Below are positions 8,600 through 60,707 of a stretch of 62,535 nt of DNA, piece by piece (the first letter of the stretch is position 1; every line of letters begins with the position of its first letter). The translations under genes were made by a program, and so were the position numbers. The notes beneath the pieces are model-generated. The model had not been told where the DNA came from. It searched no databases and saw only the letters and a program-made list of their open reading frames with translations. This DNA is from an uncultured Eubacteriales bacterium (GTDB taxonomy: Bacteria; Bacillota; Clostridia; Christensenellales; UBA1242): NCBI GenBank assembly GCA_902788085.1, contig CADAJB010000007.1, positions 1 through 62,535 of the forward strand, in the 5' to 3' direction.

Positions 8600-11011
8600 C
8601 TATTCTCCTTTTGCTTTTTTAGCTTCAATTTCGGCTAAATCGCGCTCTACAAACTTTTGTAAACTTGTTTTTTCTTTATTTGGTGGAAGCAACGCAAAAT
8701 CAAACACTTCTTGAATGTTTGTTACTAATTTTATATCAAGTTTTTCGCGAACTTCTTTTGGTAAATCGTCTAGGTTGTGTTCGTTTTGTTTTGGTAGAAT
8801 AACAGTTGTCATTCCAGCACGCGCAGCACCCATAAGTTTATCACGCACACCACCTATACTTAAAACTCTGCCGTGCAACGATACCTCACCTGTCATTGCA
8901 AGTTTTTGTTTTACTGGGCGGTTTGTTAACGCACTTGCTATTGCTAGTGCTGTTGCAACACCTGCACTTGGCCCTTCTACACCATAAGGAAGGTGTGGAT
9001 AGTGAATATGAAGCGTAGTTTTAGAGAAAGTGTAAGGGTTTATACCCAATTTATCTGCCATACTTTGAACAAGTGTATATGCTGTTTTTGCAGACTCTTG
9101 CGATATATTGCCCATTTGCCCTGTTAGCACCATTTTTTCGGAACCATATACAGCATTAACTTCGATAAGTAGTGTGCTTCCGCCTGTATAATCTACGCCT
9201 AAGCCTACAACTTCGCCGACATTTCCGCCATCAAAGAAAGTATCTTTTTCGGCATAGTCGTTGCCTAAATATGCCTTTAAGTTTGTTAGGCTTACATCTT
9301 TAAACTTTTTGCCGTCAACCTTACGCATTGCATACTTTCGGCAGATTGACGCAATTTGACGCTCTAAGCCCCTAACACCTGCTTCCATAGTATAATCTTC
9401 TATAATTTTTAACAATAACTCGTCGGTAAAAGGCACAGTATTTTGTGCAAGACCGGCTAATTTTTCTTGTTTAACTATTAGGTGGCGTTTGGCTATTTCC
9501 ACCTTTTCTAGTGGTGTATAGCCACTAACTTCTATAACTTCCATACGGTCTAGTAGTGGGCGCGGAATAGTTTGTAAAGTGTTGGCCGTTAGTATAAACA
9601 TAACCTTAGATAAATCGTAAGGTATTTCTAAGAAATTATCTTTAAAGTGGTCGTTTTGCGCTGGGTCTAAAACTTCTAATAGTGCACTTGCAGGGTCGCC
9701 GTGCACATCTTGTGTTAGTTTATCAATTTCGTCTAGCAAGAACACTGGGTTTATAGTGCCGGCTTGCTTCATACCTTCTATTATTCGCCCTGGCATTGCA
9801 CCCACATAAGTGCGGCGGTGCCCACGAATAACACTTTCGTCGCTTACACCACCCAAAGATACTTGAACAAACTTACGCCCCATTGCTTTTGCAATAGATT
9901 GTGCTACCGAAGTTTTACCAACACCAGGTGCACCAACCAAACATATAATTTGGGCGTTTACATTTTTTGTAAGAGATATAACCGATAAAGTTTCTAAAAT
10001 TCGATCTTTAACCTTATCTAGTGCATAGTGGTCGTCATCTAAAATTTTGCGCGCCTGCACAATATCTAACTTGTCTTCGGTTTTTGTGTGCCAAGGAAGT
10101 GCTAATACTGTATCTAAAAAGTTGCGAATATACCCAAGTTCTGGCGAACCAAACGGAAGTTTTGCAAGCCTGTTTACTTCTTTTAATACTTTTTCTTCGC
10201 TTTCTTTTGGCATATTAAGCGCTTTAACTTTTTTGCGGTATTCTTCTATTTCGTCAACTTCGCCATTAAGTTCCTGATTAATAACATTAAGTTGCTCACG
10301 CAAGTAAATTTCTTTTTGGGTTTTAGATAAATTTTCGTTTACTTTGTCGTCAATAGACTTGCGCACTGCTAAAAGTTCTTTCAAACCTTTTATTAAGCCT
10401 TCTTCTAGTTCTAAACGCTCTTCTACATTTTGCGTAGCAAGCAAGGTTTGTTGGGTTTTTATGTCTTCTTTGGCAAGCAAATGAATAAGTGCATCCGAAA
10501 ATTTTGCAGGGCTAGATTCTAGGTTTAACAACTGGTTTTCTAGCATAGGTGGCAAAAAGCGGGTTTTGTAGTTTATTTTTTTAAGTTCATCTTTTAGTAT
10601 ATTCATCTTTTGATATGCAAAAACACTGTTTGCGTTTACTTCTGGCAACTCCTGTGCATATAAAACAAATTGCGGTTGCAAACTTTCTATTTTGTTTATA
10701 AGCACCCTACTTTGCCCAAGCAACAAAACTTTTGTATGACCTTCTTCTTCTACAAATTTTTTTATTTCACACAAACAACCTATTTCAAAAAAGTCGTTTA
10801 TAGTTGGCTCGGCAATTCCGTCTTTGCTAGAAACCAAAACAACCTTTTGCCCCTTTTCGTTGGCAATCTTTATATTTGTTAGTTCTTCGGGGTTTACTAT
10901 ATCACAAGTTATATTTACATTTGGCACTGCAACTATGTTGGTTAAAAAAACACCAATGTACTGCTTACTTGCTTCAAATTTTTGTTTATTTTGCTCTGTC
11001 ATATTTTCCAT
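8600..11011 (-). CDS. lon: ATP-dependent Lon protease (LonA)
   Basis: 803-aa ORF with an N-terminal LON domain, AAA+ Walker A GAPGVGKTS, and protease motif PSAGVATALAIASAL with the catalytic Ser. Confidence 0.95.
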   Translation of the reverse strand: MENMTEQNKQKFEASKQYIGVFLTNIVAVPNVNITCDIVNPEELTNIKIANEKGQKVVLVSSKDGIAEPTINDFFEIGCLCEIKKFVEEEGHTKVLLLGQSRVLINKIESLQPQFVLYAQELPEVNANSVFAYQKMNILKDELKKINYKTRFLPPMLENQLLNLESSPAKFSDALIHLLAKEDIKTQQTLLATQNVEERLELEEGLIKGLKELLAVRKSIDDKVNENLSKTQKEIYLREQLNVINQELNGEVDEIEEYRKKVKALNMPKESEEKVLKEVNRLAKLPFGSPELGYIRNFLDTVLALPWHTKTEDKLDIVQARKILDDDHYALDKVKDRILETLSVISLTKNVNAQIICLVGAPGVGKTSVAQSIAKAMGRKFVQVSLGGVSDESVIRGHRRTYVGAMPGRIIEGMKQAGTINPVFLLDEIDKLTQDVHGDPASALLEVLDPAQNDHFKDNFLEIPYDLSKVMFILTANTLQTIPRPLLDRMEVIEVSGYTPLEKVEIAKRHLIVKQEKLAGLAQNTVPFTDELLLKIIEDYTMEAGVRGLERQIASICRKYAMRKVDGKKFKDVSLTNLKAYLGNDYAEKDTFFDGGNVGEVVGLGVDYTGGSTLLIEVNAVYGSEKMVLTGQMGNISQESAKTAYTLVQSMADKLGINPYTFSKTTLHIHYPHLPYGVEGPSAGVATALAIASALTNRPVKQKLAMTGEVSLHGRVLSIGGVRDKLMGAARAGMTTVILPKQNEHNLDDLPKEVREKLDIKLVTNIQEVFDFALLPPNKEKTSLQKFVERDLAEIEAKKAKGE

Positions 11012-11085
11012 ATACTTAAAAGTCTCCTATTAGGTCGATAATACTGGCATAGTATATAACAAAACTAATAAAAAAGCAAGAAAAA

Positions 11086-11117
11086 ATACAAAAAGGCTTA
11101 AAAAAAGCCCTTTTTTA
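11086..11117 (-). terminator. rho-independent terminator, probably the original glmS terminator now displaced by the islet
   Basis: The minus strand reads AAAAAGGGCTT-TTTTT-AAGCCTTTTT followed by a T-rich run. It lies just outside the left 17-bp direct repeat. Confidence 0.5.
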
Positions 11118-11134
11118 GAACATTTATATAAAAT

Positions 11135-11151
11135 AAAACAAAATACTACTC
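11135..11151. repeat. left 17-bp direct repeat (AAAACAAAATACTACTC) bounding the recombinase islet
   Basis: Exact copy of 12594..12610, which overlaps the glmS stop codon. Confidence 0.85.
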
Positions 11152-11174
11152 AGCATAAGATAACTTAACGAATC

Positions 11175-11441
11175 TCAGTCTTCGTCTTCTGTGAGTTTAT
11201 CAAACAATGCGACTAAATCACGGCTAGTCTTCTCTATAATGCTTATCTTTCGCAAATAATTAATAGCAATCTCCAAAGCAGCCGCATCTTCTTTCTGTCT
11301 ATTATAGTAGGAAGATATTTTTTCTTCTGACCAATCCTGCATAAATGGTGGTAAATATCTCCTTTCTGTTGGTCTTGTTGCTTTAAATTTAATCTTTCTT
11401 AATATCTCAACAACATCTTCTAAATTGTTTACTTCTCTCAT
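11175..11441 (-). CDS. hypothetical small acidic protein of the islet
   Basis: Start trimmed to MREVNNLEDVV (ATG 11441, RBS ACGGAG), 1 nt after the stop of the upstream ORF. I recognise no family. Confidence 0.5.
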   Translation of the reverse strand: MREVNNLEDVVEILRKIKFKATRPTERRYLPPFMQDWSEEKISSYYNRQKEDAAALEIAINYLRKISIIEKTSRDLVALFDKLTEDED

Positions 11442-11442
11442 A

Positions 11443-11670
11443 TTATATATCTCCGTTTTTTCTCTTTCTGTGTTTTCCTCTACCTTTCGGCTTATACACC
11501 CCTTCTGCAAGTGCCTTATTAACAATAATTTTTATTGAATTTTGCCATAGGTTATACTTTGCCATTATTTCCTTGTATGTCATATCTTTTTCAAAATAGT
11601 CAGCCAAAAGTTCATTCTCTTGCTCTTTGTTTAATTTTTTATTTGCAGGATTGTAACCTTTTTTTTTCAT
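11443..11670 (-). CDS. small helix-turn-helix protein of the islet
   Basis: 75-aa ORF. YKEIMAKYNLWQNSIKIIVNKA looks like an HTH, and the tail is basic. The start ATG sits immediately before an A9 tract shared with the upstream ORF. Confidence 0.55.
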   Translation of the reverse strand: MKKKGYNPANKKLNKEQENELLADYFEKDMTYKEIMAKYNLWQNSIKIIVNKALAEGVYKPKGRGKHRKRKNGDI

Positions 11671-11890
11671 ACGGTTTCCAGTTCCCTTGCCCTTTATGTA
11701 TAGGTTTTCTACCTACAAATGAAGGCACTCTTGCTTTTATTTCCCCACTACGCAAGTATGGTTTTACAATATTGCTAATTGTTGTAGGTGTTAAACCTGT
11801 TGTTTCACCAATATATTTAAGTTTAACCCCTTGCTTATAAAGAGTTAAAATTTGTTGTTTTGTTTCTTCTGTAATAATTTTTCTTGCCAT
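11639..11890 (-). CDS. small helix-turn-helix protein of the islet (resolvase/transposase-type HTH)
   Basis: 83-aa ORF. ILTLYKQGVKLKYIGETTGLTPTTISNIV resembles an HTH_23/HTH_7-like motif. It overlaps the next ORF by 32 nt across the A9 tract. Confidence 0.6.
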   Translation of the reverse strand: MARKIITEETKQQILTLYKQGVKLKYIGETTGLTPTTISNIVKPYLRSGEIKARVPSFVGRKPIHKGQGNWKPYEKKRLQSCK

Positions 11891-11903
11891 AAAACACCTT
11901 CTC

Positions 11904-12500
11904 TTAACATAGTGCGACTTCTCTTGCTACGACCGTTCTACTTATGCCCATTTTTTTACTAATTTGATTTTGGCTAACACCACTAACATATAACGCTTTT
12001 ATGTTTGCAATTTGCTCTTCTGTAATAGTTCTTCTTCTACCAAGTTGAACACCTTGTTCTTTTAATGCTTTCAATTTGTTTTTTGTATCATAACTAATAA
12101 GTCTTTTTTGGAACTCGTCAGCCAAAAAGAATTGAGATAAAGCCATCCATTCGTACGGGTTGAGTTTTTTACCACCTTGTAATGTTGTGCCATTGCTCAA
12201 GAAGTTAATATTAACCCCATATTCAAGGGTAATTGTATCAACAATATCCAAACAATCAATGTAGTTACAACCAAATCTTGAACTTTCTGTAAACACGACA
12301 GTGTCCCCTGGTCTTAAAACCGATAACATTTCACGGAAAGCCTTTCTCTCATCACCACGGACACCACCTGAAATATGTTCTTCAAAAACTCTTTCTATAT
12401 CTAGCCCACTGTGTTCAATAAGGTATTTTTGCCTTTCAAAGTCTTGTGATTTTTTCGCTTTTTTTGCACTAACACGAAAATACGCATAAATTTTACTCAT
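11904..12500 (-). CDS. serine recombinase (resolvase/invertase family, C-terminal HTH)
   Basis: N-terminal YAYFRVSAKK (catalytic Ser), HISGG, PGDTVVFTESSRFGCN, GVQLGRRRT, and C-terminal HTH ISKKMGISRTVVAREV. Same layout as Hin/Gin/Tn3 resolvase. Confidence 0.9.
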   Translation of the reverse strand: MSKIYAYFRVSAKKAKKSQDFERQKYLIEHSGLDIERVFEEHISGGVRGDERKAFREMLSVLRPGDTVVFTESSRFGCNYIDCLDIVDTITLEYGVNINFLSNGTTLQGGKKLNPYEWMALSQFFLADEFQKRLISYDTKNKLKALKEQGVQLGRRRTITEEQIANIKALYVSGVSQNQISKKMGISRTVVAREVALC

Positions 12501-12554
12501 AATATCTCCTTTACAAAGCCATCAAATGTATGGACTTACATGGTTTATATAGTT

Positions 12555-12583
12555 ATTATATCATAATAACATAAAAAACACAA
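12555..12583 (-). promoter_or_regulatory. putative sigma-A promoter for the recombinase
   Basis: The minus strand reads TTGTGT, 17 nt, TGATATAAT (extended -10), about 55 nt upstream of the ATG. Confidence 0.45.
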
Positions 12584-12593
12584 GCAAAAATTA

Positions 12594-12610
12594 AAAACAA
12601 AATACTACTC
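12594..12610. repeat. right 17-bp direct repeat (AAAACAAAATACTACTC), overlapping the glmS stop
   Basis: Exact copy of 11135..11151. It contains the glmS codons GAG-TAG on the minus strand. Confidence 0.85.
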
Positions 12611-14401
12611 TACTGTAACTGACTTTGCAAGGTTTCGGGGTTTATCTACATTTAAGTTTTTTTGTTTAGCAAGAAGCAATGCTAATTGTTGCAAAACCTT
12701 TGTGGCGACAAATGGCGAAAACACATCTTTTTTGTTGTTTATGTAAATACAAAAATCCACAACAATATCAACCTTTTGCGAAGTAATTAAAATTATATGT
12801 GCGCCACGGCTTTGCATTTCTATAATATTGCTAATCACTTTTTGGGTTAACTCTTTTTGGGTTAGCAACACTATTGCATAAGTTGTGTTATTAAAAAGCG
12901 CCAAACTGCCATGTTTTAACTCGCCTAATGGCATAGCCTCGCAATGAATATAACTAACTTCTTTTATCTTTAAAGCACCTTCTTGTGCAGTTATATAGTC
13001 TATATCCCGCCCTAATATATACAAACTTTGTAGGTCTTTTATGGCGTTTACAACTGGTTGAAGTTTTAAATAATAATCTTCTTTTAAGCATAAAGCAACA
13101 TCTAACAAGTCTTTATAACTATAATCTATATTTTTGCCTAAAACTTTACTAATCCACTCGGTTAACAAAAAAGCCGAACAAAGTTGCGCTATATACGCTT
13201 TTGTGCTTGCTACCGAGTTTTCGGTGCCTGCGCTTGTAAACAAGCAATAATCCACCATATTAGATATGCGTGATGTATAAACATTAGTTATGCCTAAGCA
13301 AAAAGCCCCACTTTGTTTGGCTAGTTCTAAACACCCCAAAGTATCTGCTGTTTCGCCACTTTGTGATATAAAAATGCAAAAACTATGCTTATCTAAAAAG
13401 TTGTTTTTATACCTAAATTCGCTAGCATAATCTACAACGCAAAATATGCCACAATACTTTTGCAATAAATACCCCAAAACTCTGCCCGCGTGCAAGGCCG
13501 TTCCGCAAGCACAAATAAAAAAGGTTTTGGCGCTTTCTATCGCATTTTTTGGTATGTATGATAAAGCATTGTTATATAGTATATTTTGCGCTGTATTTAA
13601 TAGTGCACTAGGGCTTTGGTTAATCTCTTTTTCCATAAACGAAGAAAAACCATTTATATCTGTATCTAAACCATTGTTTTTTACATCTAACTTTTGTAGT
13701 ATAACTGGTTCTAAATTAAAGTTATAGCATTTAAAACCATCTTTAAAAACAAGCCCTAAGGTATTGTCTTTTAGTTTATAAACTTGGGCTTTTTGTGGCA
13801 ACCCCACTATATCACTTGCAACCATAACCCCTGTATTTGTTTTGCCTATAACAAGTGGGCTAAACTTTGTTGCTATAAACAAACAATTTAAGTTGTCTAT
13901 TAATATACACAACGCAAACGAGCCTTTTAGCATTGGCAAAACCTTATTTAAAGCGTTTAACACATTTTTTATAGTGTAGGCTTTGCCTTTTAATTTTTGC
14001 ATAATAAGATTTGGTATAACTTCGGTATCTGTATCCGAAACTAAGTTTATGCCATCTAAATACAAAGTTTGTTTTAATTGCAAAAAATTTTCGATAATTC
14101 CGTTATGTACAACTGCAATTTTTTTATTTTCACTTATTTGTGGGTGCGCGTTTTTTGTGCAAACTTTTCCGTGAGTTGCCCAGCGTGTATGCCCTATCAT
14201 AACACTAGCCGGGGTTGCGTTTTTTTGTAGTGCTTGTTTTAAGTTATCAACCCCACCTGTTACTTTAACCGTGTATAAACCTTTGTTTAACAAATACCCT
14301 ACGCCTGCGCTATCATACCCGCGATATTCTAGTTTTTTTAAGCAATCTAGCACAATATTTTGGGCAGGTTTTTTGCCTATATAGCCTGCAATTCCGCACA
14401 T
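12605..14401 (-). CDS. glmS: glutamine--fructose-6-phosphate aminotransferase
   Basis: Starts MCGIAGYIG (Ntn Cys1) and has two SIS domains. C-terminus is NLAKSVTVE. Confidence 0.95.
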   Translation of the reverse strand: MCGIAGYIGKKPAQNIVLDCLKKLEYRGYDSAGVGYLLNKGLYTVKVTGGVDNLKQALQKNATPASVMIGHTRWATHGKVCTKNAHPQISENKKIAVVHNGIIENFLQLKQTLYLDGINLVSDTDTEVIPNLIMQKLKGKAYTIKNVLNALNKVLPMLKGSFALCILIDNLNCLFIATKFSPLVIGKTNTGVMVASDIVGLPQKAQVYKLKDNTLGLVFKDGFKCYNFNLEPVILQKLDVKNNGLDTDINGFSSFMEKEINQSPSALLNTAQNILYNNALSYIPKNAIESAKTFFICACGTALHAGRVLGYLLQKYCGIFCVVDYASEFRYKNNFLDKHSFCIFISQSGETADTLGCLELAKQSGAFCLGITNVYTSRISNMVDYCLFTSAGTENSVASTKAYIAQLCSAFLLTEWISKVLGKNIDYSYKDLLDVALCLKEDYYLKLQPVVNAIKDLQSLYILGRDIDYITAQEGALKIKEVSYIHCEAMPLGELKHGSLALFNNTTYAIVLLTQKELTQKVISNIIEMQSRGAHIILITSQKVDIVVDFCIYINNKKDVFSPFVATKVLQQLALLLAKQKNLNVDKPRNLAKSVTVE

Positions 14402-15147
14402 TATTTTTTACCCCCAAAACTTAAATAGGCGCTAACCAAACGATTATAAATTTTGCCTTTATTTAAAAACTTTATGCCACTAACACTTGCCTGCATTTTA
14501 AAGGTTTTTATAAGGTTTTTTAAGCGTTTGCTTACGCCAAAATTTCCGTCTATCACTTCAACTTTTAACAGCCTTTTTATATAATTTTTAAAAAACACAT
14601 AATGTGTGCATCCAAGCACAACGCAGTCAATTTTGTTTTTACACGGCAATAACAATTTAGTTAAATATTCTTGCACCACTTTTTTTGTGTATAAATTGTT
14701 TTCAATTAAATAAGCAAGGTCTTGGGGGCATAAACAAAAAACATTAAAATACCTTTTAGTTAGGTTTGTAATTTTACTGTTTTTTATAGTATTAGATGTA
14801 GCAAGCAACAATATATTTTTGTGCTTTTTTACAGCAGGCACAAGTGCGGGCTCGGTGCCAATAAAGATAATGGACTTGTATTTGTTTCTTAAATAACTTA
14901 CTACAAGAGCCGTTGCCGTATTGCACGCTAAAACCACAATTTTGGGGTTGTATTGATTAATTAAATTTTTTATTGTATTTTTTATGCTATACACAAGTTT
15001 AGTTTTTGACTTGTTGCCATAAGGCATATTATCTTCATCGGCATAATATAAATACGGCTGATTAGGCACAAGTTTGTAACACCTATACAGCGTAGAAACG
15101 CCACCTATACCGCTATCAAAAAATAAAATTGGTTGGTTGTTAATCAT
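14401..15147 (-). CDS. murI: glutamate racemase
   Basis: FFDSGIGGVS near the N-terminus, plus LACNTA and VLGCTHY catalytic Cys motifs. Its stop overlaps the glmS start (TAATG). Confidence 0.9.
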   Translation of the reverse strand: MINNQPILFFDSGIGGVSTLYRCYKLVPNQPYLYYADEDNMPYGNKSKTKLVYSIKNTIKNLINQYNPKIVVLACNTATALVVSYLRNKYKSIIFIGTEPALVPAVKKHKNILLLATSNTIKNSKITNLTKRYFNVFCLCPQDLAYLIENNLYTKKVVQEYLTKLLLPCKNKIDCVVLGCTHYVFFKNYIKRLLKVEVIDGNFGVSKRLKNLIKTFKMQASVSGIKFLNKGKIYNRLVSAYLSFGGKK

Positions 15148-15178
15148 AAAGTGGTATATGCAAAAAATAAAAACAAGG

Positions 15179-15988
15179 TTAACAAAACCTGTTTAAAATA
15201 TCTTTTGAATACAAACTATTGTTTATTGCGTTAGATATAATATAGGCGCACTTTTTTATAACAAAATCTATCTCTTTGGGTGTAAAATGCCTGTATATAC
15301 CATCGCAACTATTTTGTGTTATGCTTTCAATCCCTATAAGAAGCGGAACACCAACAGATATAACAGGTACACCCAAACTATATTTATTTAATATTTTTTT
15401 ACCACTATCTACCCCACCACCTGGCAAAATGCCCGCATTGCTAACCTGAAAAGTTAGACCTAATCTTTCTAAACTAAACGCTGTTAAACTATCCACCGCT
15501 AAAACTACATCTGGCTTAATTTTGCGCACAGTTTGATAGATTATATCGTACGAACTTACACCCGTTAAACCTTCTACACTAGGCAAAATATAACAAAGTT
15601 TTGGCAGATTTAGCGCAGAAAGTATATCACTGTTTACAACGCACAACCCATGGCAAACCAAACTGCCTAAACTATCACAAACCATATTGCCGTTTCCTAG
15701 CCCTACAACCATTAATTTTATAATGTTTTTGTTTAATTTTTTGTAAAAATTATTTAAAGTTAAGCAGAGTTGTTTAGATATATAATTTTGTATTTTTTTA
15801 GACCACAAAAAGTTTTGTTTTGCCTTAAATGTAACATAATGCCCTGTGCCTTTTTTTAATATTATGCTTAATTTTTTATTTACATTTAGTTCATACTTTA
15901 ATACGCCATACGCACCTTTTTGGGTGATTTTGCCTAATATTTTATTTTGATTGGCGTTTTGCAGTAATTCATCTAATAAATCTGTCAT
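15179..15988 (-). CDS. gpr: GPR-like spore germination protease (short form)
   Basis: MVVGLGNGNMVCDSLGSLV, KPDVVLAVDSLTA, ILPGGGV and GVPVISVGVPLL match the GPR endopeptidase core. At 269 aa it is shorter than the Bacillus enzyme. Confidence 0.75.
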   Translation of the reverse strand: MTDLLDELLQNANQNKILGKITQKGAYGVLKYELNVNKKLSIILKKGTGHYVTFKAKQNFLWSKKIQNYISKQLCLTLNNFYKKLNKNIIKLMVVGLGNGNMVCDSLGSLVCHGLCVVNSDILSALNLPKLCYILPSVEGLTGVSSYDIIYQTVRKIKPDVVLAVDSLTAFSLERLGLTFQVSNAGILPGGGVDSGKKILNKYSLGVPVISVGVPLLIGIESITQNSCDGIYRHFTPKEIDFVIKKCAYIISNAINNSLYSKDILNRFC

Positions 15989-16044
15989 ATCTACCCTTAT
16001 ATTGTGTTTTAAATAATTATTTACAAAAAATTAGCAAATAACTC

Positions 16045-16073
16045 TTGCAATATAAAAAAAATTATGTTAAACT
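16045..16073 (+). promoter_or_regulatory. sigma-A type promoter of rpsT
   Basis: TTGCAA, 17 nt, TGtTAAACT (extended -10), about 30 nt upstream of the GTG start. Confidence 0.6.
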
Positions 16074-16105
16074 AACAAAGCAAATTTATATTTAGGAGAA
16101 ACAAA

Positions 16106-16378
16106 GTGGCAAACATTAAATCACAAAAAAAGAGAATTGAATTAGCAAAAGCCGAAAACTTGCAAAACAAGTCTAAAAAATCTCGTATTGCTACCGAAGT
16201 GCGTACTTACCGCGGTTTAGTTAAAGAACAAAAGTTTGACGAAGCACAAAAAGCATTAAACAACTTATTTAGTTTAATAGACCGTGCAAGGTTAGATAAT
16301 GTTTACAAACAAAACACTGCTAGCCGTAAAAAAGCTGCACTAGCACGCGAATTAAGCCAAGCTAAAAACGCTAAATAA
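16106..16378 (+). CDS. rpsT: 30S ribosomal protein S20
   Basis: MANIKSQKKRIELAKAENLQNKSKKS... is a typical S20 N-terminus. GTG start with RBS AGGAGA. Confidence 0.95.
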   Translation: MANIKSQKKRIELAKAENLQNKSKKSRIATEVRTYRGLVKEQKFDEAQKALNNLFSLIDRARLDNVYKQNTASRKKAALARELSQAKNAK

Positions 16379-16393
16379 TCAAAAATTTTCAAC

Positions 16394-16418
16394 TAGGGGG
16401 CTATCCCCTATTTTTTTT
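16394..16418 (+). terminator. rho-independent terminator after rpsT
   Basis: TAGGGG-GCTAT-CCCCTA followed by T8. Confidence 0.75.
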
Positions 16419-16428
16419 AGGAGTTTGT

Positions 16429-17178
16429 ATGAAATTAATAATAAATGCCGATGATTTTGGTCTTTCTAAATCGGTAAACAAAGGCATAATAGAAGGTTTA
16501 TCACAAGGCATTGTTTCTAGCACTAGCCTTATGGTAAACACCCCATACACACAAGAAGCAATCGAATTTATACGCAAACTAAAATTAAAAAATGTAGGTA
16601 TTCATTTAAACCTAACCTACGGATTTTCGGTATTGCCCGCCAACGAAGTTTCTTCGTTAGTAGATAGTACTGGCAGGTTTCATTATGTTTGTTTACTTGG
16701 ATATTACACACAATATATAGATGCAAAAAAAGAATTAAGGGCGCAAATTGAAAAGTTTTTAAAAGCAGGTTTAAAACCCACTCATTTAGACTATCACCAC
16801 TACTTCCACGAAGTGCCAAACATTTTTAAAGCATACTTAGAACTAGCAAAAGAATATAACCTACCTGTTAGAACAATGACACCCGAAACACGCGCTATGG
16901 CAAAAGAAATGGGGCTTGTTACAACCGACGAATTTAGTTTTGACTTCCACAACGATTATGGTGTAAATGTAGAAACGCTAAAAGATATTGTAAGCAAATA
17001 TAAAAACACCGATAAAACAGTAGAAATTTTAACTCATATTGGCTATATAGACGAATACACACAAAACCAAACAAACTATTTAATCCGCGAAAAAGAAATA
17101 GAAGTTTTAAAACAAGCAAAACAGCAAGGTGTTTTTGATGACTGCTCACTTATTAGTTTTGCCGATTTAAAAAAGTAA
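16429..17178 (+). CDS. YdjC/ChbG family carbohydrate deacetylase
   Basis: MKLIINADDFGLSKSVNKGI... and HLDYHHY motifs are characteristic of the YdjC family. Confidence 0.85.
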   Translation: MKLIINADDFGLSKSVNKGIIEGLSQGIVSSTSLMVNTPYTQEAIEFIRKLKLKNVGIHLNLTYGFSVLPANEVSSLVDSTGRFHYVCLLGYYTQYIDAKKELRAQIEKFLKAGLKPTHLDYHHYFHEVPNIFKAYLELAKEYNLPVRTMTPETRAMAKEMGLVTTDEFSFDFHNDYGVNVETLKDIVSKYKNTDKTVEILTHIGYIDEYTQNQTNYLIREKEIEVLKQAKQQGVFDDCSLISFADLKK

Positions 17179-17205
17179 AGCCTAGTATTTTAGGCTTTAT
17201 TTTTA
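17178..17205 (+). terminator. rho-independent terminator
   Basis: AAGCCTA-GTATTT-TAGGCTT followed by a T-rich run. Confidence 0.7.
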
Positions 17206-17211
17206 TTAGTA

Positions 17212-17240
17212 TTGACTAACTTCTGTTTTTATGTTATACT
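17212..17240 (+). promoter_or_regulatory. sigma-A type promoter
   Basis: TTGACT, 17 nt, TGtTATACT. Confidence 0.6.
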
Positions 17241-17261
17241 TAAAACTATAAGGGGGTATTT

Positions 17262-18505: not shown

Positions 18506-18516
18506 ATACTATTTAA

Positions 18517-22455: not shown

Positions 22456-23788
22456 AAGTTTCTCCGCTAACTAAATATTTAAAAAAATCTCCGCGTTGTA
22501 AATAATTTGAAAACTGGTCAAAACTTGCACACGCTGGACTTAATAAAACAACATCACCGCTTTTTGATATTTGCATACTCTTTATTACAGCATCCTCAAA
22601 ATTATATATAAACTCGGCTTTTATCTTGAATTTTTTAGATAAATTAAATATCTTTTTGCCAGTCTTCCCAAATGCCACTATATATTTTATATTTTGTGTT
22701 AAGTTTTTAAATAAGTAAGAAAAATCTTCGCCCTTATTGCTTCCGCCCAACAGTAAGATAAGGGGCTTATTAAAGTTATTTAGTGCATTTAGCGTTGCGT
22801 GAATATTTGTTGCCTTCGAATCGTTTATATAATCTACACCATTTTTATTAACCACAAACTCGCATCTGTGTGGTGGAAGTTTAAAACTATTAATTGCTTC
22901 TTTTACATCTACAATGTCAACACCACACAATAGCGCAATCGTGCTTGCCACTAACACATTATATAAATTTATAGACAACATTTTTGCGTTGATTTGCAGT
23001 TTATATAACTTTGTATCTAGTTTTATGCACAAAAAGTCTTGGCTTTTGTAAGCACTATATTTATAATTGCTTAAACTATGTTTTATGCTAAAATACACGA
23101 CATTTGCTTTTGTATTTTGTGCACAATTAAATACAATTTTATCATCATAATTTAAAATTACATAGTCTTGTTTATCTTGGTTTTTGTATATATTTTGCTT
23201 GCACATAAGATATTCGTTTATAGTACTATGCACATCTAAATGATCAGGCGCAAAATTCAAAAAAGCCGAAATTTTAGGTTTGAATTTTTTTATATACTGC
23301 AACTGAAAACTACTTGCCTCGCACACTAAAAAATTATCTTTTGTTGTGTTAAAAACAACTTCGCTAATGCTACGGCCAACATTACCAACAGCAACAGCCT
23401 TTTTTTGTGCGCAGTTTAGTATGTGCGTAGCAAGCAATGTTGTGGTGGTTTTTCCATTGGTTCCTGTTATTGCAATTAGTTTGCCACTATTATACTGTGC
23501 ACCTAATTCTATTTCGCTAATTATGTCTATATTATATAATTTTGCTTTTTTGTGCATAGTTTTGCTTATTTTTACGCCCGGACTAACTACTATGCACTTA
23601 ATACTATGAGGTTTAATTTTGTTTAGTTTAGTGCATAGTACTACGCTTTTATCTACTAGTTTTGCATTATAAATTGAATATAATTTAGATTTATCTTTAT
23701 CATATAATATAACTTTTTGCTTTTGCTTAATTAATAAATTGCAAGCCCCTATTCCGCTTATGCCCGCGCCTAAAACTAAATAAAACAT
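22439..23788 (-). CDS. murD: UDP-N-acetylmuramoylalanine--D-glutamate ligase
   Basis: N-terminal Rossmann motif GAGISGIG and Mur ligase P-loop ITGTNGKTTTT. Located between mraY and ftsW. Confidence 0.95.
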   Translation of the reverse strand: MFYLVLGAGISGIGACNLLIKQKQKVILYDKDKSKLYSIYNAKLVDKSVVLCTKLNKIKPHSIKCIVVSPGVKISKTMHKKAKLYNIDIISEIELGAQYNSGKLIAITGTNGKTTTTLLATHILNCAQKKAVAVGNVGRSISEVVFNTTKDNFLVCEASSFQLQYIKKFKPKISAFLNFAPDHLDVHSTINEYLMCKQNIYKNQDKQDYVILNYDDKIVFNCAQNTKANVVYFSIKHSLSNYKYSAYKSQDFLCIKLDTKLYKLQINAKMLSINLYNVLVASTIALLCGVDIVDVKEAINSFKLPPHRCEFVVNKNGVDYINDSKATNIHATLNALNNFNKPLILLLGGSNKGEDFSYLFKNLTQNIKYIVAFGKTGKKIFNLSKKFKIKAEFIYNFEDAVIKSMQISKSGDVVLLSPACASFDQFSNYLQRGDFFKYLVSGETFESIK

Positions 23789-31410: not shown

Positions 31411-31428
31411 GTGCATAGTACTATGCAC
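31411..31428. repeat. perfect 18-bp palindrome GTGCATAGTACTATGCAC
   Basis: The sequence is its own reverse complement, read directly from the window. Confidence 0.95.
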
Positions 31429-31470
31429 CACTATTTATAAGCAAAACTATGCGCAAAAGCGAGTTTTATA

Positions 31471-31510
31471 TAGGTACTATGCACTTTTAAAACAAAGTGC
31501 ATAGTACCTA
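31471..31510. repeat. split copy of the same palindrome: 14-bp perfect arms separated by a 12-nt spacer
   Basis: TAGGTACTATGCAC (31471..31484), ttttaaaacaaa, GTGCATAGTACCTA (31497..31510). Confidence 0.9.
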
Positions 31511-39353: not shown

Positions 39354-39376
39354 AATACTATGCATAGTACTATGCA
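39353..39376. repeat. 24-bp motif block TAATACTATGCATAGTACTATGCA (left arm of a 24-bp perfect inverted repeat)
   Basis: Its exact reverse complement occurs at 42099..42122. It contains overlapping copies of the TGCATAGTA / TACTATGCA half-sites. Confidence 0.9.
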
Positions 39377-39416
39377 CCACTGTTTTGCGAATAGTTTATT
39401 ACAAAATATAGGGCTT

Positions 39417-39430
39417 TTAATACTATGCAC
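39417..39430. repeat. motif half-site TTAATACTATGCAC abutting the ypeB stop codon
   Basis: The minus strand reads TAG (ypeB stop) followed directly by TGCATAGTATTAA. Confidence 0.75.
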
Positions 39431-42007: not shown

Positions 42008-42098
42008 ATATTCTTCTCCTTTTTTAAAATTATTCACTATAAATTTAAAAATAAACAAAAAAGACAAGATAAATCTTGACTTTTTGTTATAATTTATT

Positions 42099-42122
42099 TG
42101 CATAGTACTATGCATAGTATTA
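42099..42122. repeat. right arm of the 24-bp perfect inverted repeat (TGCATAGTACTATGCATAGTATTA)
   Basis: Exact reverse complement of 39353..39376. Its last 3 nt are the stop codon of the SipL-like gene. Confidence 0.9.
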
Positions 42123-44042: not shown

Positions 44043-44055
44043 TAGTACTATGCAC
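44043..44055. repeat. motif half-site TAGTACTATGCAC abutting the tkt stop codon
   Basis: The minus strand reads TAG (tkt stop) followed directly by TGCATAGTACTA, the same 12-mer TAGTGCATAGTA as at the ypeB stop. Confidence 0.75.
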
Positions 44056-46726: not shown

Positions 46727-47390
46727 ATCTTAATTTTGTTGTTATATAGCGGTTGCATTCTTTTACAATCTGTTGTAAATCAGCATCAGCATATATAGGT
46801 TTTGGGTGATTTTTTGTAGGAGGAAGATAATGCTGTATATAATAATGTTTTGCACCTTTTAAATATTTGGCAATATCTATAAAGTCTTGTTTTAAAATGG
46901 TTGGAATTGCTGTTGTGCGAAACTCGTAATCTATATTGCTATTTATAAGCAAACTTATAGATTGTTTTAGTGCATCTAAGTTTACACTTACTTGTGCTAC
47001 ATCATTATATTTTTTTGATATTGTTTTTATATCCATTGCAACATAATCTATCAACTTTTTATCTAACAAGTCCTTTAAGGCTGTGGGGTTTGTGCCGTTT
47101 GTATCTAACTTTACTAAAAAGCCTAAATCTTTTATTTCTTTAATAAACTGCGGTAGGTCTTTGTGCATAGTAGGTTCACCACCACAAACAACCACTGCAT
47201 CTAACTTACCTATTCTTGTTTTTAAAAAGTCTAAAACTTCTTGCTTATCTACTTCGCCTTTTTTAAGTGAAAGCAGTTCAGCATTTTGACAAAACCAACA
47301 ATTCCACATACAACCCTGCGTAAACACCACACAAGCAAGTTTGCCCGGATAATCTATTAATGATGTTTTAACATAGTTGTGAATTTCCAT
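46725..47390 (-). CDS. nrdG: anaerobic ribonucleoside-triphosphate reductase activating protein (radical SAM)
   Basis: SLIDYPGKLACVVFTQGCMWNCWFCQN (CxxxCxxC) and CGGEP. Immediately downstream of nrdD. Confidence 0.9.
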   Translation of the reverse strand: MEIHNYVKTSLIDYPGKLACVVFTQGCMWNCWFCQNAELLSLKKGEVDKQEVLDFLKTRIGKLDAVVVCGGEPTMHKDLPQFIKEIKDLGFLVKLDTNGTNPTALKDLLDKKLIDYVAMDIKTISKKYNDVAQVSVNLDALKQSISLLINSNIDYEFRTTAIPTILKQDFIDIAKYLKGAKHYYIQHYLPPTKNHPKPIYADADLQQIVKECNRYITTKLR

Positions 47391-53442: not shown

Positions 53443-53835
53443 TGGTGGAGATGATGGGAGTTGAACCCATGTCCAAAAAACTATCAAACCAACATCTACA
53501 TATTTAGTTGCTTTATAATCTTGCATAAGGCTAACCAAGCAACAGGTGCAATATGCAAAGTTTAATTTAATACGGCACAAAACCTTAAACACTTTTTGTG
53601 CGAGTAACCTAATGGGTTGATACCATATTGTATGCCTTAGGTACTATCCAACACACAACTGGCAGATTTAATAAAACTTAAATCAAGCAATTACGCATAA
53701 GCGTAAACTGTGTTAACACTTGCGTAATTAGAAACGTTTTTGTTTGCGTTTACATTTAATTTTCGTTGGTAATGCAGACGAACCTGCAATATGCATTTGG
53801 TTTGACCCATTTTCTGTCAAAGCCGTAACACCCCC
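53443..53835 (-). ncRNA. ssrA: tmRNA (SsrA)
   Basis: The minus strand starts GGGGGTGTTACGGCTTTGACAG and ends GGACATGGGTTCAACTCCCATCATCTCCACCA (tRNA-like acceptor/T-arm with CCA). It has an internal tag ORF and lies 6 nt downstream of smpB. Confidence 0.9.
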
Positions 53836-57243: not shown

Positions 57244-58767
57244 TTATTCTTTTATTAAACTTTCGCCCGTCATTTCTTGTGGTTTATCCACTTCCATTAA
57301 GTTTAGTATAGTTGGGGCAAAACAATCTAACCCAAAATCGCCTTTTTTTAGTTTTAGTTTAGAGTTTGTAACAATAAACGGAACAGGGTTTGTAGTATGT
57401 GTAGTTGCACAACCGTTTGAAGTGCGCATATCTTCTATATTTCCGTGGTCGGCGGTTATTACACACACATAACCATTGTTTTGCGCAGAGTTTACCACTA
57501 TTTTAAGGCACTCGTCTAAAACTTCTAACGCCTTTACACTTGCATTTATATTGCCCCTATGCCCTACCATATCGGCATTACTAAAATTAACAACTATTAA
57601 ATCGTACTTTTGCTCTAACATTTTATAAACAAGTTGTTGCGCAATCTCGTAAGCACGCATTTGAGGGAATGTGGCAAAATCATCTACAAACTTGCTTTCT
57701 ATTAAAATTCGGTCTTCGCCTTTATATGACTTTTCTACTCCACCATTTAAATAATAAGTTATGTGTGCATACTTTGTTGTTTCGGCTATTTTTAATTGTT
57801 TTAGTTTATTATTAGATATAACCTGCGACAAAGTGTTTTTAGGAAACTCTGGCAAAAACAGGGCTGGCAAGTTTTTTTGCTTTGCATCGTACACACACAT
57901 TGCTGTGCAGTTTATCTTTGGCATCTTGCCCCTATTAAACTTGTTAAACTTAGGGCTTGCAAATGCACTTGTAAGTTGGCGCATACGGTCGGGGCGAAAG
58001 TTAAAGAATAAAACCTCATCACCCGACTGCATACCACTATAACCACCCACTGCAAAACTTGGCATATATTCGTCACTAACTTTGCGTGCATACGCTTTTT
58101 CGAAGGCGTGATTAATAGTATTTACCCTAAACTTTGCAGTACTATGCACTATTAGGTTGAATGCCTCTTCGGTGCGCACCCAACGCTGTTCGCGGTCCAT
58201 TGCGTAAAAACGCCCAATAATTGTGGCAACACTGCCTAAATTTAGTTTATTTAACTTATCTTCTACTTGTTTTACAAATTTAAAGCCACTATCTACACTA
58301 GTATCGCGCCCGTCTGTAATACAATGCACATACACATTTTTTATATTATAATCGGCAATTATATCTAAAAGAGCAAACAAATGATTTATACTACTATGCA
58401 CTCCACCATCGGAAACTAGGCCCACTAAGTGCATAGTACTATGATTTTTTTGCGCCCTAGTTATTGCTTGCAACAATACTTTGTTTTGTAATAATTGACC
58501 ATTTTGTATTGCGTTGTTTATACGCATAAAGTCTTGATAAACAACACGACCACTACCAATATTTAAATGCCCTACTTCGCTATTGCCCATTTGCCCGTCG
58601 GGCAACCCCACATATTTGCCACTTGCCTGTATTGTAGTATGTGGATATTCTTTTAATAACGAATTATAAAAAGGCATTTTTGCTAAACTAAAAGGATTTT
58701 CGTCTTTACTTTTTCGAACACCAAAACCGTCTAAAATAATACCCAATACTGGCTGTTTTACTTTCAT
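57244..58767 (-). CDS. gpmI: 2,3-bisphosphoglycerate-independent phosphoglycerate mutase
   Basis: Start trimmed to MKVKQPVLGIILDGFG (RBS AAAGGAG, just after the tpiA stop). Motifs GNSEVGHLNIGSGR, SDGGVHS and ITADHGN. Confidence 0.95.
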   Translation of the reverse strand: MKVKQPVLGIILDGFGVRKSKDENPFSLAKMPFYNSLLKEYPHTTIQASGKYVGLPDGQMGNSEVGHLNIGSGRVVYQDFMRINNAIQNGQLLQNKVLLQAITRAQKNHSTMHLVGLVSDGGVHSSINHLFALLDIIADYNIKNVYVHCITDGRDTSVDSGFKFVKQVEDKLNKLNLGSVATIIGRFYAMDREQRWVRTEEAFNLIVHSTAKFRVNTINHAFEKAYARKVSDEYMPSFAVGGYSGMQSGDEVLFFNFRPDRMRQLTSAFASPKFNKFNRGKMPKINCTAMCVYDAKQKNLPALFLPEFPKNTLSQVISNNKLKQLKIAETTKYAHITYYLNGGVEKSYKGEDRILIESKFVDDFATFPQMRAYEIAQQLVYKMLEQKYDLIVVNFSNADMVGHRGNINASVKALEVLDECLKIVVNSAQNNGYVCVITADHGNIEDMRTSNGCATTHTTNPVPFIVTNSKLKLKKGDFGLDCFAPTILNLMEVDKPQEMTGESLIKE

Positions 58768-58777: not shown

Positions 58778-59503
58778 TTACATATCTTTGGCAATACCTA
58801 AAAAGTCGGCACAATTTAAACTTGCACCACCAACTAATGCACCATCTACACAATCTATTTTAAATATATCTGCACTCATTCCTGGTTTTACACTTCCACC
58901 ATATAGCACCGGAACAGTTTTACCAAACTTTTTTTGCAAAACCTGCTTTATATACTGTATGTTTGTTTTTATATCTTTTACAGAAGCAGTTTTGCCCGTA
59001 CCTATTGCCCAAACAGGCTCGTACGCAATAATTATATTAGAAACATCTTTAATATCACACAAACATTCTTTTAATTGTTTTAACAATACTTTTTTTGTTT
59101 GTTTGTTTTCATATTCTTGTAATGTTTCGCCGATGCACAAAAGTGGTTTTATATCATTATTTAGCAAACGATTAATCTTTTTGTTTATAGTTTGGTTATC
59201 TTCATTAAAATAAGTTCGGCGTTCGCTATGCCCTACTAAACAAAAATCTGCACCAACTTCTTTTAACATTTTTGCACTATTTTCACCAGTATAGGCACCA
59301 CTTTCGGCAAAAGCAACATTCTGCCCACCTGCTAGCCAACCATTCTTTTTAAGTGTTAAAGCGGTTTTTTGTAAATACACACTAGGCACACTTACACCAT
59401 AAGTTATATTTAAAGGAAATTGTGAACGCTTAAAGTCTTTAAAAAACTGGTCAATTTGCGCATTATATATAGACATTTTCCAGTTGGCTATTAAATATTT
59501 CAT
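58778..59503 (-). CDS. tpiA: triose-phosphate isomerase
   Basis: ANWKM, LVGHSERR, AYEPVWAIGTG and GGASL motifs. Confidence 0.95.
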   Translation of the reverse strand: MKYLIANWKMSIYNAQIDQFFKDFKRSQFPLNITYGVSVPSVYLQKTALTLKKNGWLAGGQNVAFAESGAYTGENSAKMLKEVGADFCLVGHSERRTYFNEDNQTINKKINRLLNNDIKPLLCIGETLQEYENKQTKKVLLKQLKECLCDIKDVSNIIIAYEPVWAIGTGKTASVKDIKTNIQYIKQVLQKKFGKTVPVLYGGSVKPGMSADIFKIDCVDGALVGGASLNCADFLGIAKDM

Positions 59504-59513
59504 AAAACACCTC

Positions 59514-60707
59514 TTAATCGAATTTATCTTGAATAACTTCTACACCTGGCAAACTTTTGCCTTCTAATAGTTTTAAACTTGCTCCGCCACCTGTTGATAT
59601 AAATTTAATTTTATCTTGTAGTTCTAGCCCTTCTACTGCGGCAATACTATCACCACCGCCTACCATTGTAAAGTAAGGTGATTTTGCCATAGTTTTGGCT
59701 ACTTCATTAGTACCCTTTGCAAATTTTTGGAACTCGAATACACCCATAGGGCCATTCCAAAATACTGTGCGGGCGCGTTGCAAAAAGCGTTTGTATATAG
59801 CAAGTGTTTTTGGCCCTATATCTAGCCCCATTAAACTGCGTGGAAAGTGGTCGGTAGAAACAATAGTTGGCTGTGCAGCAAAACTAAACTCGCCTGCTGC
59901 AACATGGTCAACCGGCAACAAAATGCGTGTGCCTAATTTTTCGGCTTTTTCTAAAATTAATTTTGCCATTGGCACTTTATCTTTTTCGACTAACGATTTA
60001 CCCAAAGTGTAACCTTGTGCACGCAAAAAGGTATATGCCATAGCACCACCAATCATAATGGTGTCGGCTTTATCTAAAAGGTTGTCTAAAAGTTCTATTT
60101 TATCTTTAACCTTCGAACCACCAACTAGCACTACAAAAGGCTTGTCGGGGTCGTTTAACACTTTATCAAATGTTTTTAATTCTTTTTCTACAAGCAAACC
60201 AACACAGTTTGGCATTACCTGTGCCACACCATAGGTGCTGGCGTGTTGACGGTGCATAGTACCAAAAGCGTCATCACAATAAATATCTGCAAGTGCCGAA
60301 AGTTTTCGTACAAAGTCGGGGTCGTTTGCTTCTTCACCTGGGTCGAACCTTAGGTTTTGCATCATAACAATGTCGCCCTCTTTCATATTGCGAACAAACT
60401 TAATAGTATCTATATCACCTACATCTTTTGTAAGTATAACAGGCTTTTTAATAAGTTGGCGCAAGCGCTCGGCAACTGGTTCGAGGCTGAAATCTGGCAC
60501 AACCTTACCTTCGGGACGACCAAGGTGTGTGCAAATAATTATTTTTGCCTTCTGCTCTATTAAATATTTTAGTGTTGGTATAGATTCACGAATACGCCTA
60601 TCGTTTGTTATTTTTAAGTTAGCGTTTAAAGGTACATTATAATCTACCCTTAATAAAACTTTTTTACCTTCTAAAACATAATCTTTTAAAGTGGTTTTAT
60701 TAAACAT
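59514..60707 (-). CDS. pgk: phosphoglycerate kinase
   Basis: RVDYNVP, a variant of the FGTAHRAHAS motif (FGTMHRQHAS), and GGGDS. Confidence 0.95.
   Translation of the reverse strand: MFNKTTLKDYVLEGKKVLLRVDYNVPLNANLKITNDRRIRESIPTLKYLIEQKAKIIICTHLGRPEGKVVPDFSLEPVAERLRQLIKKPVILTKDVGDIDTIKFVRNMKEGDIVMMQNLRFDPGEEANDPDFVRKLSALADIYCDDAFGTMHRQHASTYGVAQVMPNCVGLLVEKELKTFDKVLNDPDKPFVVLVGGSKVKDKIELLDNLLDKADTIMIGGAMAYTFLRAQGYTLGKSLVEKDKVPMAKLILEKAEKLGTRILLPVDHVAAGEFSFAAQPTIVSTDHFPRSLMGLDIGPKTLAIYKRFLQRARTVFWNGPMGVFEFQKFAKGTNEVAKTMAKSPYFTMVGGGDSIAAVEGLELQDKIKFISTGGGASLKLLEGKSLPGVEVIQDKFD

Follow-up and report, generated by a model that had tools for sequence, protein, structure and literature searches.

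Why does one short word recur throughout a stretch of clostridial DNA, inside genes as well as between them? The stretch analysed here (the window) comprises the 62,535 nucleotides of contig CADAJB010000007.1 from an uncultured Eubacteriales bacterium (assembly GCA_902788085.1), and the element in question is the asymmetric 12-mer RGTACTATGCAC, built around the near-invariant core TACTATGCA. From sequence comparison we consider that this word may be the binding sequence of a chromosome-partition or chromosome-organisation protein, probably a re-specified ParB, and we give this reading a probability of roughly 40%. It is the best supported of the readings weighed below because arrays of the word occupy the centromere position, the canonical ParB-binding site parS is missing from the clade DNA sampled, and contact residues of their ParB have changed.

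The word is a 12-mer in large excess

The original prediction, made by eye, had listed 17 exact copies of the 9-mer ACTATGCAC or its complement GTGCATAGT. All 17 are present at the listed starts, against an expectation of 0.46 (maximum 2) in dinucleotide-preserving shuffles, in agreement with the earlier estimate of well under one copy by chance. Allowing up to one mismatch the window holds 49 copies of ACTATGCAC (14.3 expected). The 8-of-9 copies that had been mentioned likewise exist, but four of their starts were one base off (the true positions are 28107, 40540, 42098 and 42110). Ranking of k-mers and alignment of the flanks place the conserved unit at the 12-mer AGTACTATGCAC, with 8 exact and 10 one-mismatch copies, and the information profile of 26 copies aligned with their flanks confines conservation to positions -3 to +8, with a weak T following the final C. 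The 18-bp palindrome noted earlier consists of two such units overlapping in the self-complementary AGTACT; it occurs exactly once (31411-31428), and with up to 3 mismatches six times (0.05 expected). Since the 17 copies divide 9 to 8 between the plus and minus strands, in a window of uniform GC skew, the word is not a polar motif of the kind of Chi or the FtsK-orienting polar sequences (KOPS), and the strand bias shared by these and the SpoIIIE recognition sequences (SRS) is absent from the window.

Our sampling of the clade defined below covers ~190 kb of partial genomes, and an analysis of variants used 158 kb of clade DNA. In these 158 kb the 11-mer GTACTATGCAC occurs 51 times (0.06 expected) and its one-mismatch variants are almost confined to the first and last positions, which indicates that the core TACTATGCA is maintained copy by copy. 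Overall the excess of the word is 100-fold or more, and mutations in its 9-bp core are almost absent.

The copies are unevenly spread. Ten of the 17 are in coding sequence and seven fall within only 6.9 kb of intergenic DNA; a hand count from the window positions gives 11 pairs no more than 100 bp apart (0.43 expected). Four of the 29 intergenic regions bear the word with up to one mismatch and 25 are empty, murD alone has four copies and gpmI three, and a 33-kb stretch made up of window positions 1-23,000 and the 10 kb by which we extended the sequence past the left end (tsaD and the S10 ribosomal operon) contains a single copy.

The word is enriched in one clade

Pfam matches to YpeB, SleB, SpoIIR, a SipL-like protein and Veg in the window, and to Spo0A just outside it, identify the host as a spore-forming Firmicute. 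Its closest species-representative genomes are uncultured metagenome-assembled genomes (MAGs) labelled 'Clostridia/Christensenella' (GpmI 64% and Spo0A 65% identical), and the window species itself recurs, at 98.9-99.95% identity, in numerous metagenome assemblies from rumen and gut, with the copies retained in all of these strains.

The original prediction had asked if related genomes share the word, and they do. Among the sequences compared it is enriched solely in one clade of uncultured gut and rumen spore-forming Clostridia, and more distant relatives, represented by 1.26 Mb of spo0A loci, are at chance level (10 copies). The enriched set consists of the window species, L175 (MurD 90% identical), L185 and L186 (SpoIIR 83%; both loci perhaps from the same species as L175), L176 and L177 (MurD 70%), L189-L191 (SpoIIR 66%), RUG666 and several origin-region contigs. 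Within this set L185 and/or L189 retain the sites that follow the stop codons of tkt, the SipL-like gene and ypeB, and other sites have been gained or lost.

Arrays of the word lie where outgroups keep parS

The non-coding gap between rsmG and parA holds arrays of 4 to ~15 copies in four clade members. In RUG666, which carries the exact 18-mer, mnmE-mnmG-rsmG is followed by parA-parB after 2.3 kb of non-coding, AT-rich DNA that contains 12 copies and two DnaA boxes in inverted orientation. A second member (L192-L194) has mnmE-mnmG-rsmG, a 1.3-kb gap, parA-parB, yidC-rnpA-rpmH, a cluster of DnaA boxes and dnaA. All 20 exact copies in the 20.7 kb of L192 are intergenic; 15 sites with at most one mismatch are packed into 670 bp of the gap, about one per 45 bp, as a plus-strand block followed by a minus-strand block with local duplications inside the arrays, and outside the gap there are two copies after parB and four next to or between the DnaA boxes. 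The same gap contains 4-5 copies in L201 and 4 in L203, mostly as the variant TACTATGCAG. The only words with at least two G/C that are common to all four gaps are sub-words of the motif, and TACTATGCA itself occurs there 12, 12, 4 and 4 times. Copies are also found inside parB of the clade (RUG666 8030, 8075 and 8120; L203 2630), in the low-complexity N-terminal linker, where the three of RUG666 are spaced at 45 nt and encode VHST. Canonical parS sites are often situated inside parB.

We searched for parS itself (TGTTNCACGTGNAACA, up to 2 mismatches) in the window with its flanks and in L189, L192, RUG666, L175, L176, L185, L195, L201 and L203. These ~190 kb of clade DNA contain none except a single match in L189, TATTGCTCGTGCAACA, which has two mismatches, lacks the CACGTG centre and looks like chance; RUG666 retains one decayed TATTTCATATGAAAGG. 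The three outgroups L197, L199 and L225 show the reverse arrangement, with parS and no exact copy of the word. Three parS sites are present in L197, of which TGTTCCACGTGAAACA lies within rsmG and the two TGTTTCACGTGAAACT copies within the gap; L199 has two perfect ones ~3.8 kb upstream of parB, where the gene boundaries are unmapped, and L225 four variant sites GTTTCATATGAAAC (4235, 4826, 5218 and 5349, in and after rsmG) with the centre CAT-ATG instead of CAC-GTG.

The ParB proteins differ between the two groups as well. The three clade sequences read GVSR..(V/I)(T/I)N.IRLL...APN(S/T)AR where those of B. subtilis, Thermus, Myxococcus, L197 and L199 read GKSR..IAN.LRLL...(G/A)xxR. In Caulobacter numbering the changes are K171V and G201N, present in all three clade proteins, and K171 is kept in all three outgroups; the GERRxRA box is intact in the clade. 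K171 belongs to six parS contacts that are conserved across ~1800 ParB and ~400 Noc proteins. G201 is among the four residues that determine specificity for parS versus the Noc-binding site (NBS); in a deep mutational scan parS-specific binding was allowed at position 201 by G, C, S or T only (PMC7383237). The ParB of L225 has N201, keeps K171 and carries VTN for IAN. Judged by its sites and its protein, L225 looks like an intermediate stage, and would represent natural co-variation of parS and ParB in its own right.

All genes of the window are co-oriented and transcribed toward the S10 operon, which puts the origin past its right end, as far as gene direction allows us to infer. The window is plausibly origin-proximal, and the copies thin out leftward.

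A possible binding word for a re-specified ParB

If the word is a binding sequence, ParB or another origin-associated protein would nucleate on the rsmG-parA arrays, which would then act as the centromere. The scattered single copies in 3' untranslated stretches and in genes would be secondary sites, comparable to half-parS or dispersed Noc sites, and would be kept by selection for binding; such selection would explain why codons and amino acids (see below) are bent to spell the word. Precedent comes from Pseudomonas, whose ParB is reported to bind numerous half-parS heptamers genome-wide (PMC10419367; PMC5961200). In a more far-reaching version parS would have been replaced outright by the asymmetric 12-bp word, which co-evolved with K171V and G201N through a stage like L225 and spread to hundreds of secondary sites, reshaping the codons and amino acids of housekeeping genes. 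This full scenario is somewhat unlikely.

Several points weigh against the binding-word reading. That a protein binds the word is a prediction. The co-occurrence of K171V and G201N with the word is a correlation arising from a single evolutionary event, the link between ParB and motif compares one clade with three outgroups, and R173 is unchanged in the ParB of the clade. Most copies are asymmetric 12-mers and not 16-bp palindromes, and in the palindromic form the CAC ends point outward, the reverse of parS, which misfits the known geometry of the ParB dimer. With 17 copies in 62 kb, ten of which are in genes, the window is far more densely populated than any known set of parS or Noc sites, and the extent of the coding adaptation goes beyond anything known for parS or NBS. 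The window is only plausibly near the origin, and L192 may belong to another species than the window. Finally, the arrays could be bound by a different protein, or could simply be neutral DNA in which a driven word has gathered.

The origin-region contigs show further features. L195 and L196 end right after rsmG, with a copy of the motif as the terminal sequence (L195 8897-8906); the arrays appear to fragment assemblies, and because contigs break at motif copies the MAGs of the clade may systematically miss the junction of parAB and the origin. In L192 (18207-20559) dnaA and rpmH are co-stranded with the main DnaA-box cluster between them, and mnmE to parB are transcribed toward that cluster, a layout unlike the usual Firmicute arrangement. 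A second palindrome, (C)TAGCGCTA(G), lies in the rsmG-parA gap and near the parA promoter of two clade members (L192 10789 and 10893; L198 5097 and 7010) and resembles the KorB operator TTTAGCSGCTAAA. We considered it as the real new parS and rejected it, as only two of the four gaps contain it (L192 and RUG666, not L201 and L203).

Copies inside genes are spelled by codon and amino-acid choice

When synonymous codons were permuted 1000 times with the proteins kept constant, 1.49 ± 1.14 in-gene copies were expected (maximum 6) and 10 are observed. Positions at which the amino acids are compatible with the word spell it in 10 of 17 cases (1.4 expected); all four TMH tripeptides are written ACT ATG CAC, and three of the four VHS tripeptides GTG CAT AGT. 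The copies show no preference for either strand relative to transcription (6 versus 4). Alignments with homologues run free of gaps across the sites in gpmI, pgk and murD, which indicates that the in-gene copies are substitutions and not insertions, and rules out insertions of a miniature inverted-repeat transposable element (MITE) or of an in-frame palindromic element of the Rickettsia type. Two sites come 'free', because family-wide conservation already provides FGTMHR in PGK and GGVHSS in GpmI, and the 9-mer is sometimes present there in motif-poor relatives. Two other GpmI sites are gains by substitution specific to this genome, STMHL replacing KTLHL, and VHST arising in a variable loop. 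In-gene copies arise through codon choice together with conservative amino-acid changes, and such fitting of codons and amino acids indicates that the pressure for the word acts at the DNA level. Positions are also retained in murD, whose four sites persist in L175 and L176; the degenerate codons under them are identical between the window and L176 in 10 of 10 cases, against a fraction of 0.67 elsewhere (P = 0.017).

If the competence machinery preferred DNA bearing the word, biased uptake and recombination would drive it genome-wide, and the word would be a DNA uptake sequence, as the original prediction suggested. Much of what that suggestion rested on stands. The 9-12 bp core is sharp with few mismatched variants, both strands are used equally, inverted pairs occur, pre-adapted sites are saturated in the manner just described, TAG stop codons are reused, amino-acid changes in gpmI create the word, and the word is common to the whole clade with some positions conserved. 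The part that fails is the distribution. Copies are extremely patchy, from one per 45 bp in the rsmG-parA gap to one in 33 kb, with most intergenic regions empty; the arrays sit exactly where outgroups keep parS; and the palindrome does not act as a terminator in the window. comFC is present as predicted. The gene proposed as a ComEC-related metallo-beta-lactamase protein (49832-51160) has a Lactamase_B domain only, which does not establish it as ComEC; neither a receptor nor a full set of competence genes was found, competence having been assessed no further than comFC. We know of no sequence-specific DNA uptake in Firmicutes, and we regard this explanation as unlikely.

Site-by-site features in the window

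The copies and near-copies discussed below are as follows.

10021..10029, minus strand: single copy in lon, cAC TAT GCA Cta = H-Y-A-L.
23222..23233, plus strand: exact 12-mer in murD, coding strand GTG CAT AGT ACT = V-H-S-T, beside a weak partner half (2 mismatches) at 23216.
23552..23642, mixed strands (23552 minus, 23589 plus, 23631 minus): three-copy cluster in the 5' part of murD, encoding TMH, CIV and LCT; the copies can form inverted pairs in alternative ways (spacers 28 and 33 nt).
31411..31428, symmetric: the sole perfect 18-bp palindrome GTGCATAGTACTATGCAC, in a divergent intergenic region; hairpin of -8.1 kcal/mol.
31446..31454, plus strand: degenerate copy ACTATGCGC in the same intergenic cluster.
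31473..31508, both strands: inverted pair GGTACTATGCAC-N12-GTGCATAGTACC, a 17-bp hairpin of -25.4 kcal/mol.
39354..39377: overlapping copies AATACTATGCATAGTACTATGCAC between the convergent mnmA and ypeB, right after the mnmA terminator; L189 has a palindrome at the equivalent position.
39419..39430, plus strand: copy joined to the ypeB stop codon, TAG-TGCATAGTATT on the minus strand; same layout in L189.
42098..42121, overlapping: three one-mismatch copies TTGCATAGTACTATGCATAGTATT immediately after the TAA of the SipL-like gene (TAA-TACTATGCAT), upstream of that gene's terminator and of spoIIR; copies at the equivalent place in L185 and L189.
44044..44055, plus strand: exact 12-mer joined to the tkt stop codon, TAG-TGCATAGTACT on the minus strand, followed by the tkt terminator and then the veg promoter; same layout in L185.
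47163..47171, minus strand: single copy in nrdG, cct ACT ATG CAC = P-T-M-H.
58138..58149, plus strand: exact 12-mer in gpmI encoding VHST, in a loop variable among relatives; a gain specific to this genome.
58390..58440, both strands (58393 plus, 58429 minus): inverted pair in gpmI with a 27-nt spacer; one arm is the family-conserved GGVHSS, the other STMHL (KTLHL in relatives).
60252..60260, minus strand: single copy in pgk, FGTMHR; several motif-poor relatives have the same 9-mer here.

The last of these is a 'free' site by our alignments, because TMH is conserved across the whole family. The placement described originally is borne out for the copies in lon, murD, nrdG, gpmI and pgk, which are in both orientations, and for the divergent region 31334-31630, which holds four copies. 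Its palindrome lies between genes for 230-aa and 375-aa proteins of no assigned function, with gapA downstream of the latter. It is also borne out at stop codons, where the word is fused to the TAG of tkt and of ypeB and clusters after the TAA of the SipL-like gene; each of these three intergenic occurrences at or overlapping a stop codon stands before a separate terminator.

The double role as terminators that inverted pairs have in Neisseria and Pasteurellaceae is not borne out here. With a hairpin of only about -8 kcal/mol on its own and no U tract, the palindrome does not serve as the terminator in this genome; no copy in the window combines a G+C-rich hairpin with a U tract, only 31411-31428 is flagged as a terminator, and weakly, and separate terminators lie downstream of the copies after tkt, the SipL-like gene and mnmA. 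Paired copies could still function in RNA, as hairpins of mRNAs and 3' untranslated regions or as targets of a small RNA bearing the palindrome. The inverted pairs do fold far better than shuffled controls (31473-31508 at -25.4 kcal/mol, z = -8.5; about -20 kcal/mol for the pairs in murD and gpmI), and many copies lie just past stop codons. Such a role is nonetheless highly improbable: most copies are single, the arrays of the untranslated rsmG-parA gap switch orientation blockwise, copies in genes show no strand preference relative to transcription, and an Rfam scan gave no match to the word, its only hit being transfer-messenger RNA (tmRNA).

Of the alternatives listed in the original prediction, the operator of an abundant DNA-binding protein comes closest to the binding-word reading, and it is in the form of a transcription-factor operator that it is disfavoured. 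Here a global regulator, for example of sporulation or central carbon metabolism, would recognise the word, and the arrays and in-gene sites would be operators or roadblocks. Clusters upstream of the gapA operon, 32 nt upstream of spo0A and between the SipL-like gene and spoIIR fit this, as do the copies inside pgk and gpmI and beside tkt. In relatives outside the dense clade, too, small clusters recur at orthologous intergenic positions: one downstream of rpmA in L062 and L014, and another shared by L001 and L179. Against this, most intergenic copies lie between a stop codon and a terminator and not at promoters, no partner element occurs at a fixed distance, the flanking genes have no common function and no regulator gene is adjacent, 15 sites upstream of parA exceed any known operator, and the core tolerates far less variation than is usual among sets of transcription-factor sites. 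We hold an operator of this type to be quite unlikely. A promoter element of a sporulation sigma factor (GCATA or CATnnTA) was rejected, as it has no partner at a fixed distance and the copies follow stop codons.

A selfish or neutral short repeat, resembling repetitive extragenic palindromic sequences (REPs) and bacterial interspersed mosaic elements (BIMEs), MITE terminal repeats or the highly iterated palindrome HIP1, would owe its spread to a transposase, a nickase or biased repair and serve no cellular function. The word is palindromic where units overlap, is found at gene 3' ends and occurs in clusters whose copies alternate in orientation; the arrays contain local duplications, and clade contigs break at them. 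Yet no flank is conserved past 12-13 bp, 10 of the 17 copies are in genes and gap-free against homologues, neither a REP-associated tyrosine transposase (RAYT) nor another transposase was found in the window beyond a word-free serine recombinase islet, and the scarcity of core variants speaks for each copy being actively maintained. The REP- or MITE-like option of the original prediction accordingly loses its footing in this window, and we consider selfish spread very unlikely.

Two further candidates were set aside. A MITE or longer composite element including TTTTGCG, which is often found close to copies, fails because that heptamer is common throughout the window and nothing outside the 12-mer is conserved. 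For a type II topoisomerase site, an 'E-site' oligonucleotide of S. pneumoniae topoisomerase IV contains ACTATGCAC, a match we treat as chance, given that 282 papers contain the 9-mer; the published gate rules, which call for G at -4, A at -2 and T at -1 and fix where the dyad lies, misfit the palindrome.

Other observations

TTTTGCG occurs at 46 sites in the window (24.9 expected; for example 39383 and 44025). Its bias of 32 plus-strand to 14 minus-strand sites means that CGCAAAA is enriched on the gene-coding strand, probably the leading strand. A tmRNA gene (Rfam RF00023, 136 bits) at 53443-53835 adjoins smpB and accounts for one long 'empty' intergenic region. secA is split into open reading frames of 763 and 127 aa in the window (2172-4857) and in strain L227, and is intact at 902 aa in L226 (7281-9989); the split may reflect a frameshift or stop codon in this essential gene, or a mistake in the assembly. 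Between lon and glmS (window ~11100-12550) lies an islet with a 198-aa serine recombinase (Resolvase and HTH_7 domains) and short open reading frames. It is present in the window and L227 and absent from L226, where glmS runs almost directly into lon, and it is probably a small mobile insertion; it has no copy of the motif.

Sequences resembling the word turn up elsewhere. The SpoVB/MurJ-like flippase of the motif-poor L010, L011, L015, L023 and L062 (for example L062 3058-3130) has a conserved cytoplasmic loop peptide, N-S-A-Q-N-x-V-H-S-T-M-H-S-T, whose DNA spells GCGCAAAAC...GTGCATAGTACTATGCATAGTAC; the conservation may be of the peptide or of the DNA. The word is thus carried by this 'NSAQNGVHSTMHST' loop in relatives, and the window species has no such loop. 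A phage-like metagenome contig of 40% GC (L178 1-461) holds five copies within 200 bp, including a perfect 18-mer, inside the gene for an AbrB/SpoVT-like protein with the peptide EYVHSTMHSS.

In L014, a related MAG (BRZ_DV__bin98; 1311-19466), tandem runs of the heptamer AATTAGC (for example 8894-8924 and 16976-17013) lie within a longer repeat cggcggactttcgcttacgctcaagg..., and there are 28 occurrences of AATTAGCAAT in 21.5 kb. The repeats form a distinct family, MITE-like or microsatellite, and AATTAGCAAT was dropped as a dialect of the motif, being the tandem heptamer inside an unrelated repeat. Viral collections contain no 18-mer and no convergent pair, and the 19 direct-pair matches found in them are unrelated repeats such as TACTATGCACGCATAG. 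AT-rich IMG/VR contigs (L209-L223; for example L210 3906-3936) carry a conserved TATTATGTTAAAT box followed by repeats of TACTATGCACGCAYAG(T/G)AAAA, probably phage promoters or iterons, whose 10 bases in common with the motif are a coincidence.

Implications

The parS site of primary chromosomes is regarded as almost invariant across bacteria. If the binding-word reading holds, the clade would be a natural experiment on how a centromere and the protein that binds it evolve together, complete with an apparent intermediate and identifiable changes in ParB contacts, and would supply orthogonal pairs of ParB and site for tagging DNA loci. The scattered copies show a DNA-level signal that overrides codon preference, and even amino-acid identity, in core enzymes; were ParB the binder, the idea of ParB as a nucleoid-associated protein would extend from Pseudomonas to Firmicutes, with evidence of selection. 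Should the word be an uptake sequence instead, it would be the first in Firmicutes.

Comparison with known systems

Like REP/BIME elements associated with RAYTs, the word can be palindromic, lies just downstream of stop codons and forms clusters of alternating orientation; REPs, however, are imperfect extragenic palindromes of 20-40 nt, and the word is 12 nt long, has no conserved flank and is found mostly in genes, by substitution. With HIP1 of cyanobacteria (GCGATCGC) it shares the character of a short high-copy word in genes and spacers that is kept at the DNA level across a lineage, but HIP1 is a symmetric octamer, tied to a methyltransferase and quasi-periodic, whereas the present unit is asymmetric, clustered and concentrated at parAB and oriC.

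The DnaA box, whose consensus we take to be TTATNCACA, shares TATNCAC with the motif core CTATGCAC. Both have an asymmetric 9-mer-like core that is used in both orientations, clustered at the origin as well as scattered. Unlike DnaA boxes, the word needs an extra 5' RGTA and has C, not T, at box position 1; canonical TTATCCACA DnaA boxes coexist with it in the same origins.

The DNA uptake sequences (DUS) of Neisseriaceae and the uptake signal sequences (USS) of Pasteurellaceae are likewise 9-12 bp words in excess by orders of magnitude, on both strands, with inverted pairs near gene ends, fitted into coding sequence, clade-wide and partly conserved in position. The present word differs from them in its patchiness, its arrays at the centromere position, its separation from the terminator and its Firmicute host, and the chromosome-wide spread free of locus arrays that characterises DUS and USS is not seen in the ~190 kb sampled.

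Compared with parS (TGTTNCACGTGNAACA) the word is unrelated beyond a shared T-N-CAC; it is an asymmetric 12-mer and not a 16-bp palindrome, with its palindrome joined at the opposite end, and with 0.27 copies per kb in the window and 1 per kb at the origin it is denser than parS or NBS by one to two orders of magnitude. Its scattered single sites recall the half-parS of Pseudomonas aeruginosa ParB (PMC5961200, PMC10419367), for which adaptation of codons and amino acids like that seen here is not known to be reported. What the word has in common with the ParB-parS and Noc-NBS systems is its concentration next to parA-parB and oriC and also inside parB, the ability of its sites to lie in genes, and a sharply conserved core, and the four-residue switch from ParB to Noc (PMC7383237) is paralleled by the changes at positions 171 and 201 in the ParB of the clade.

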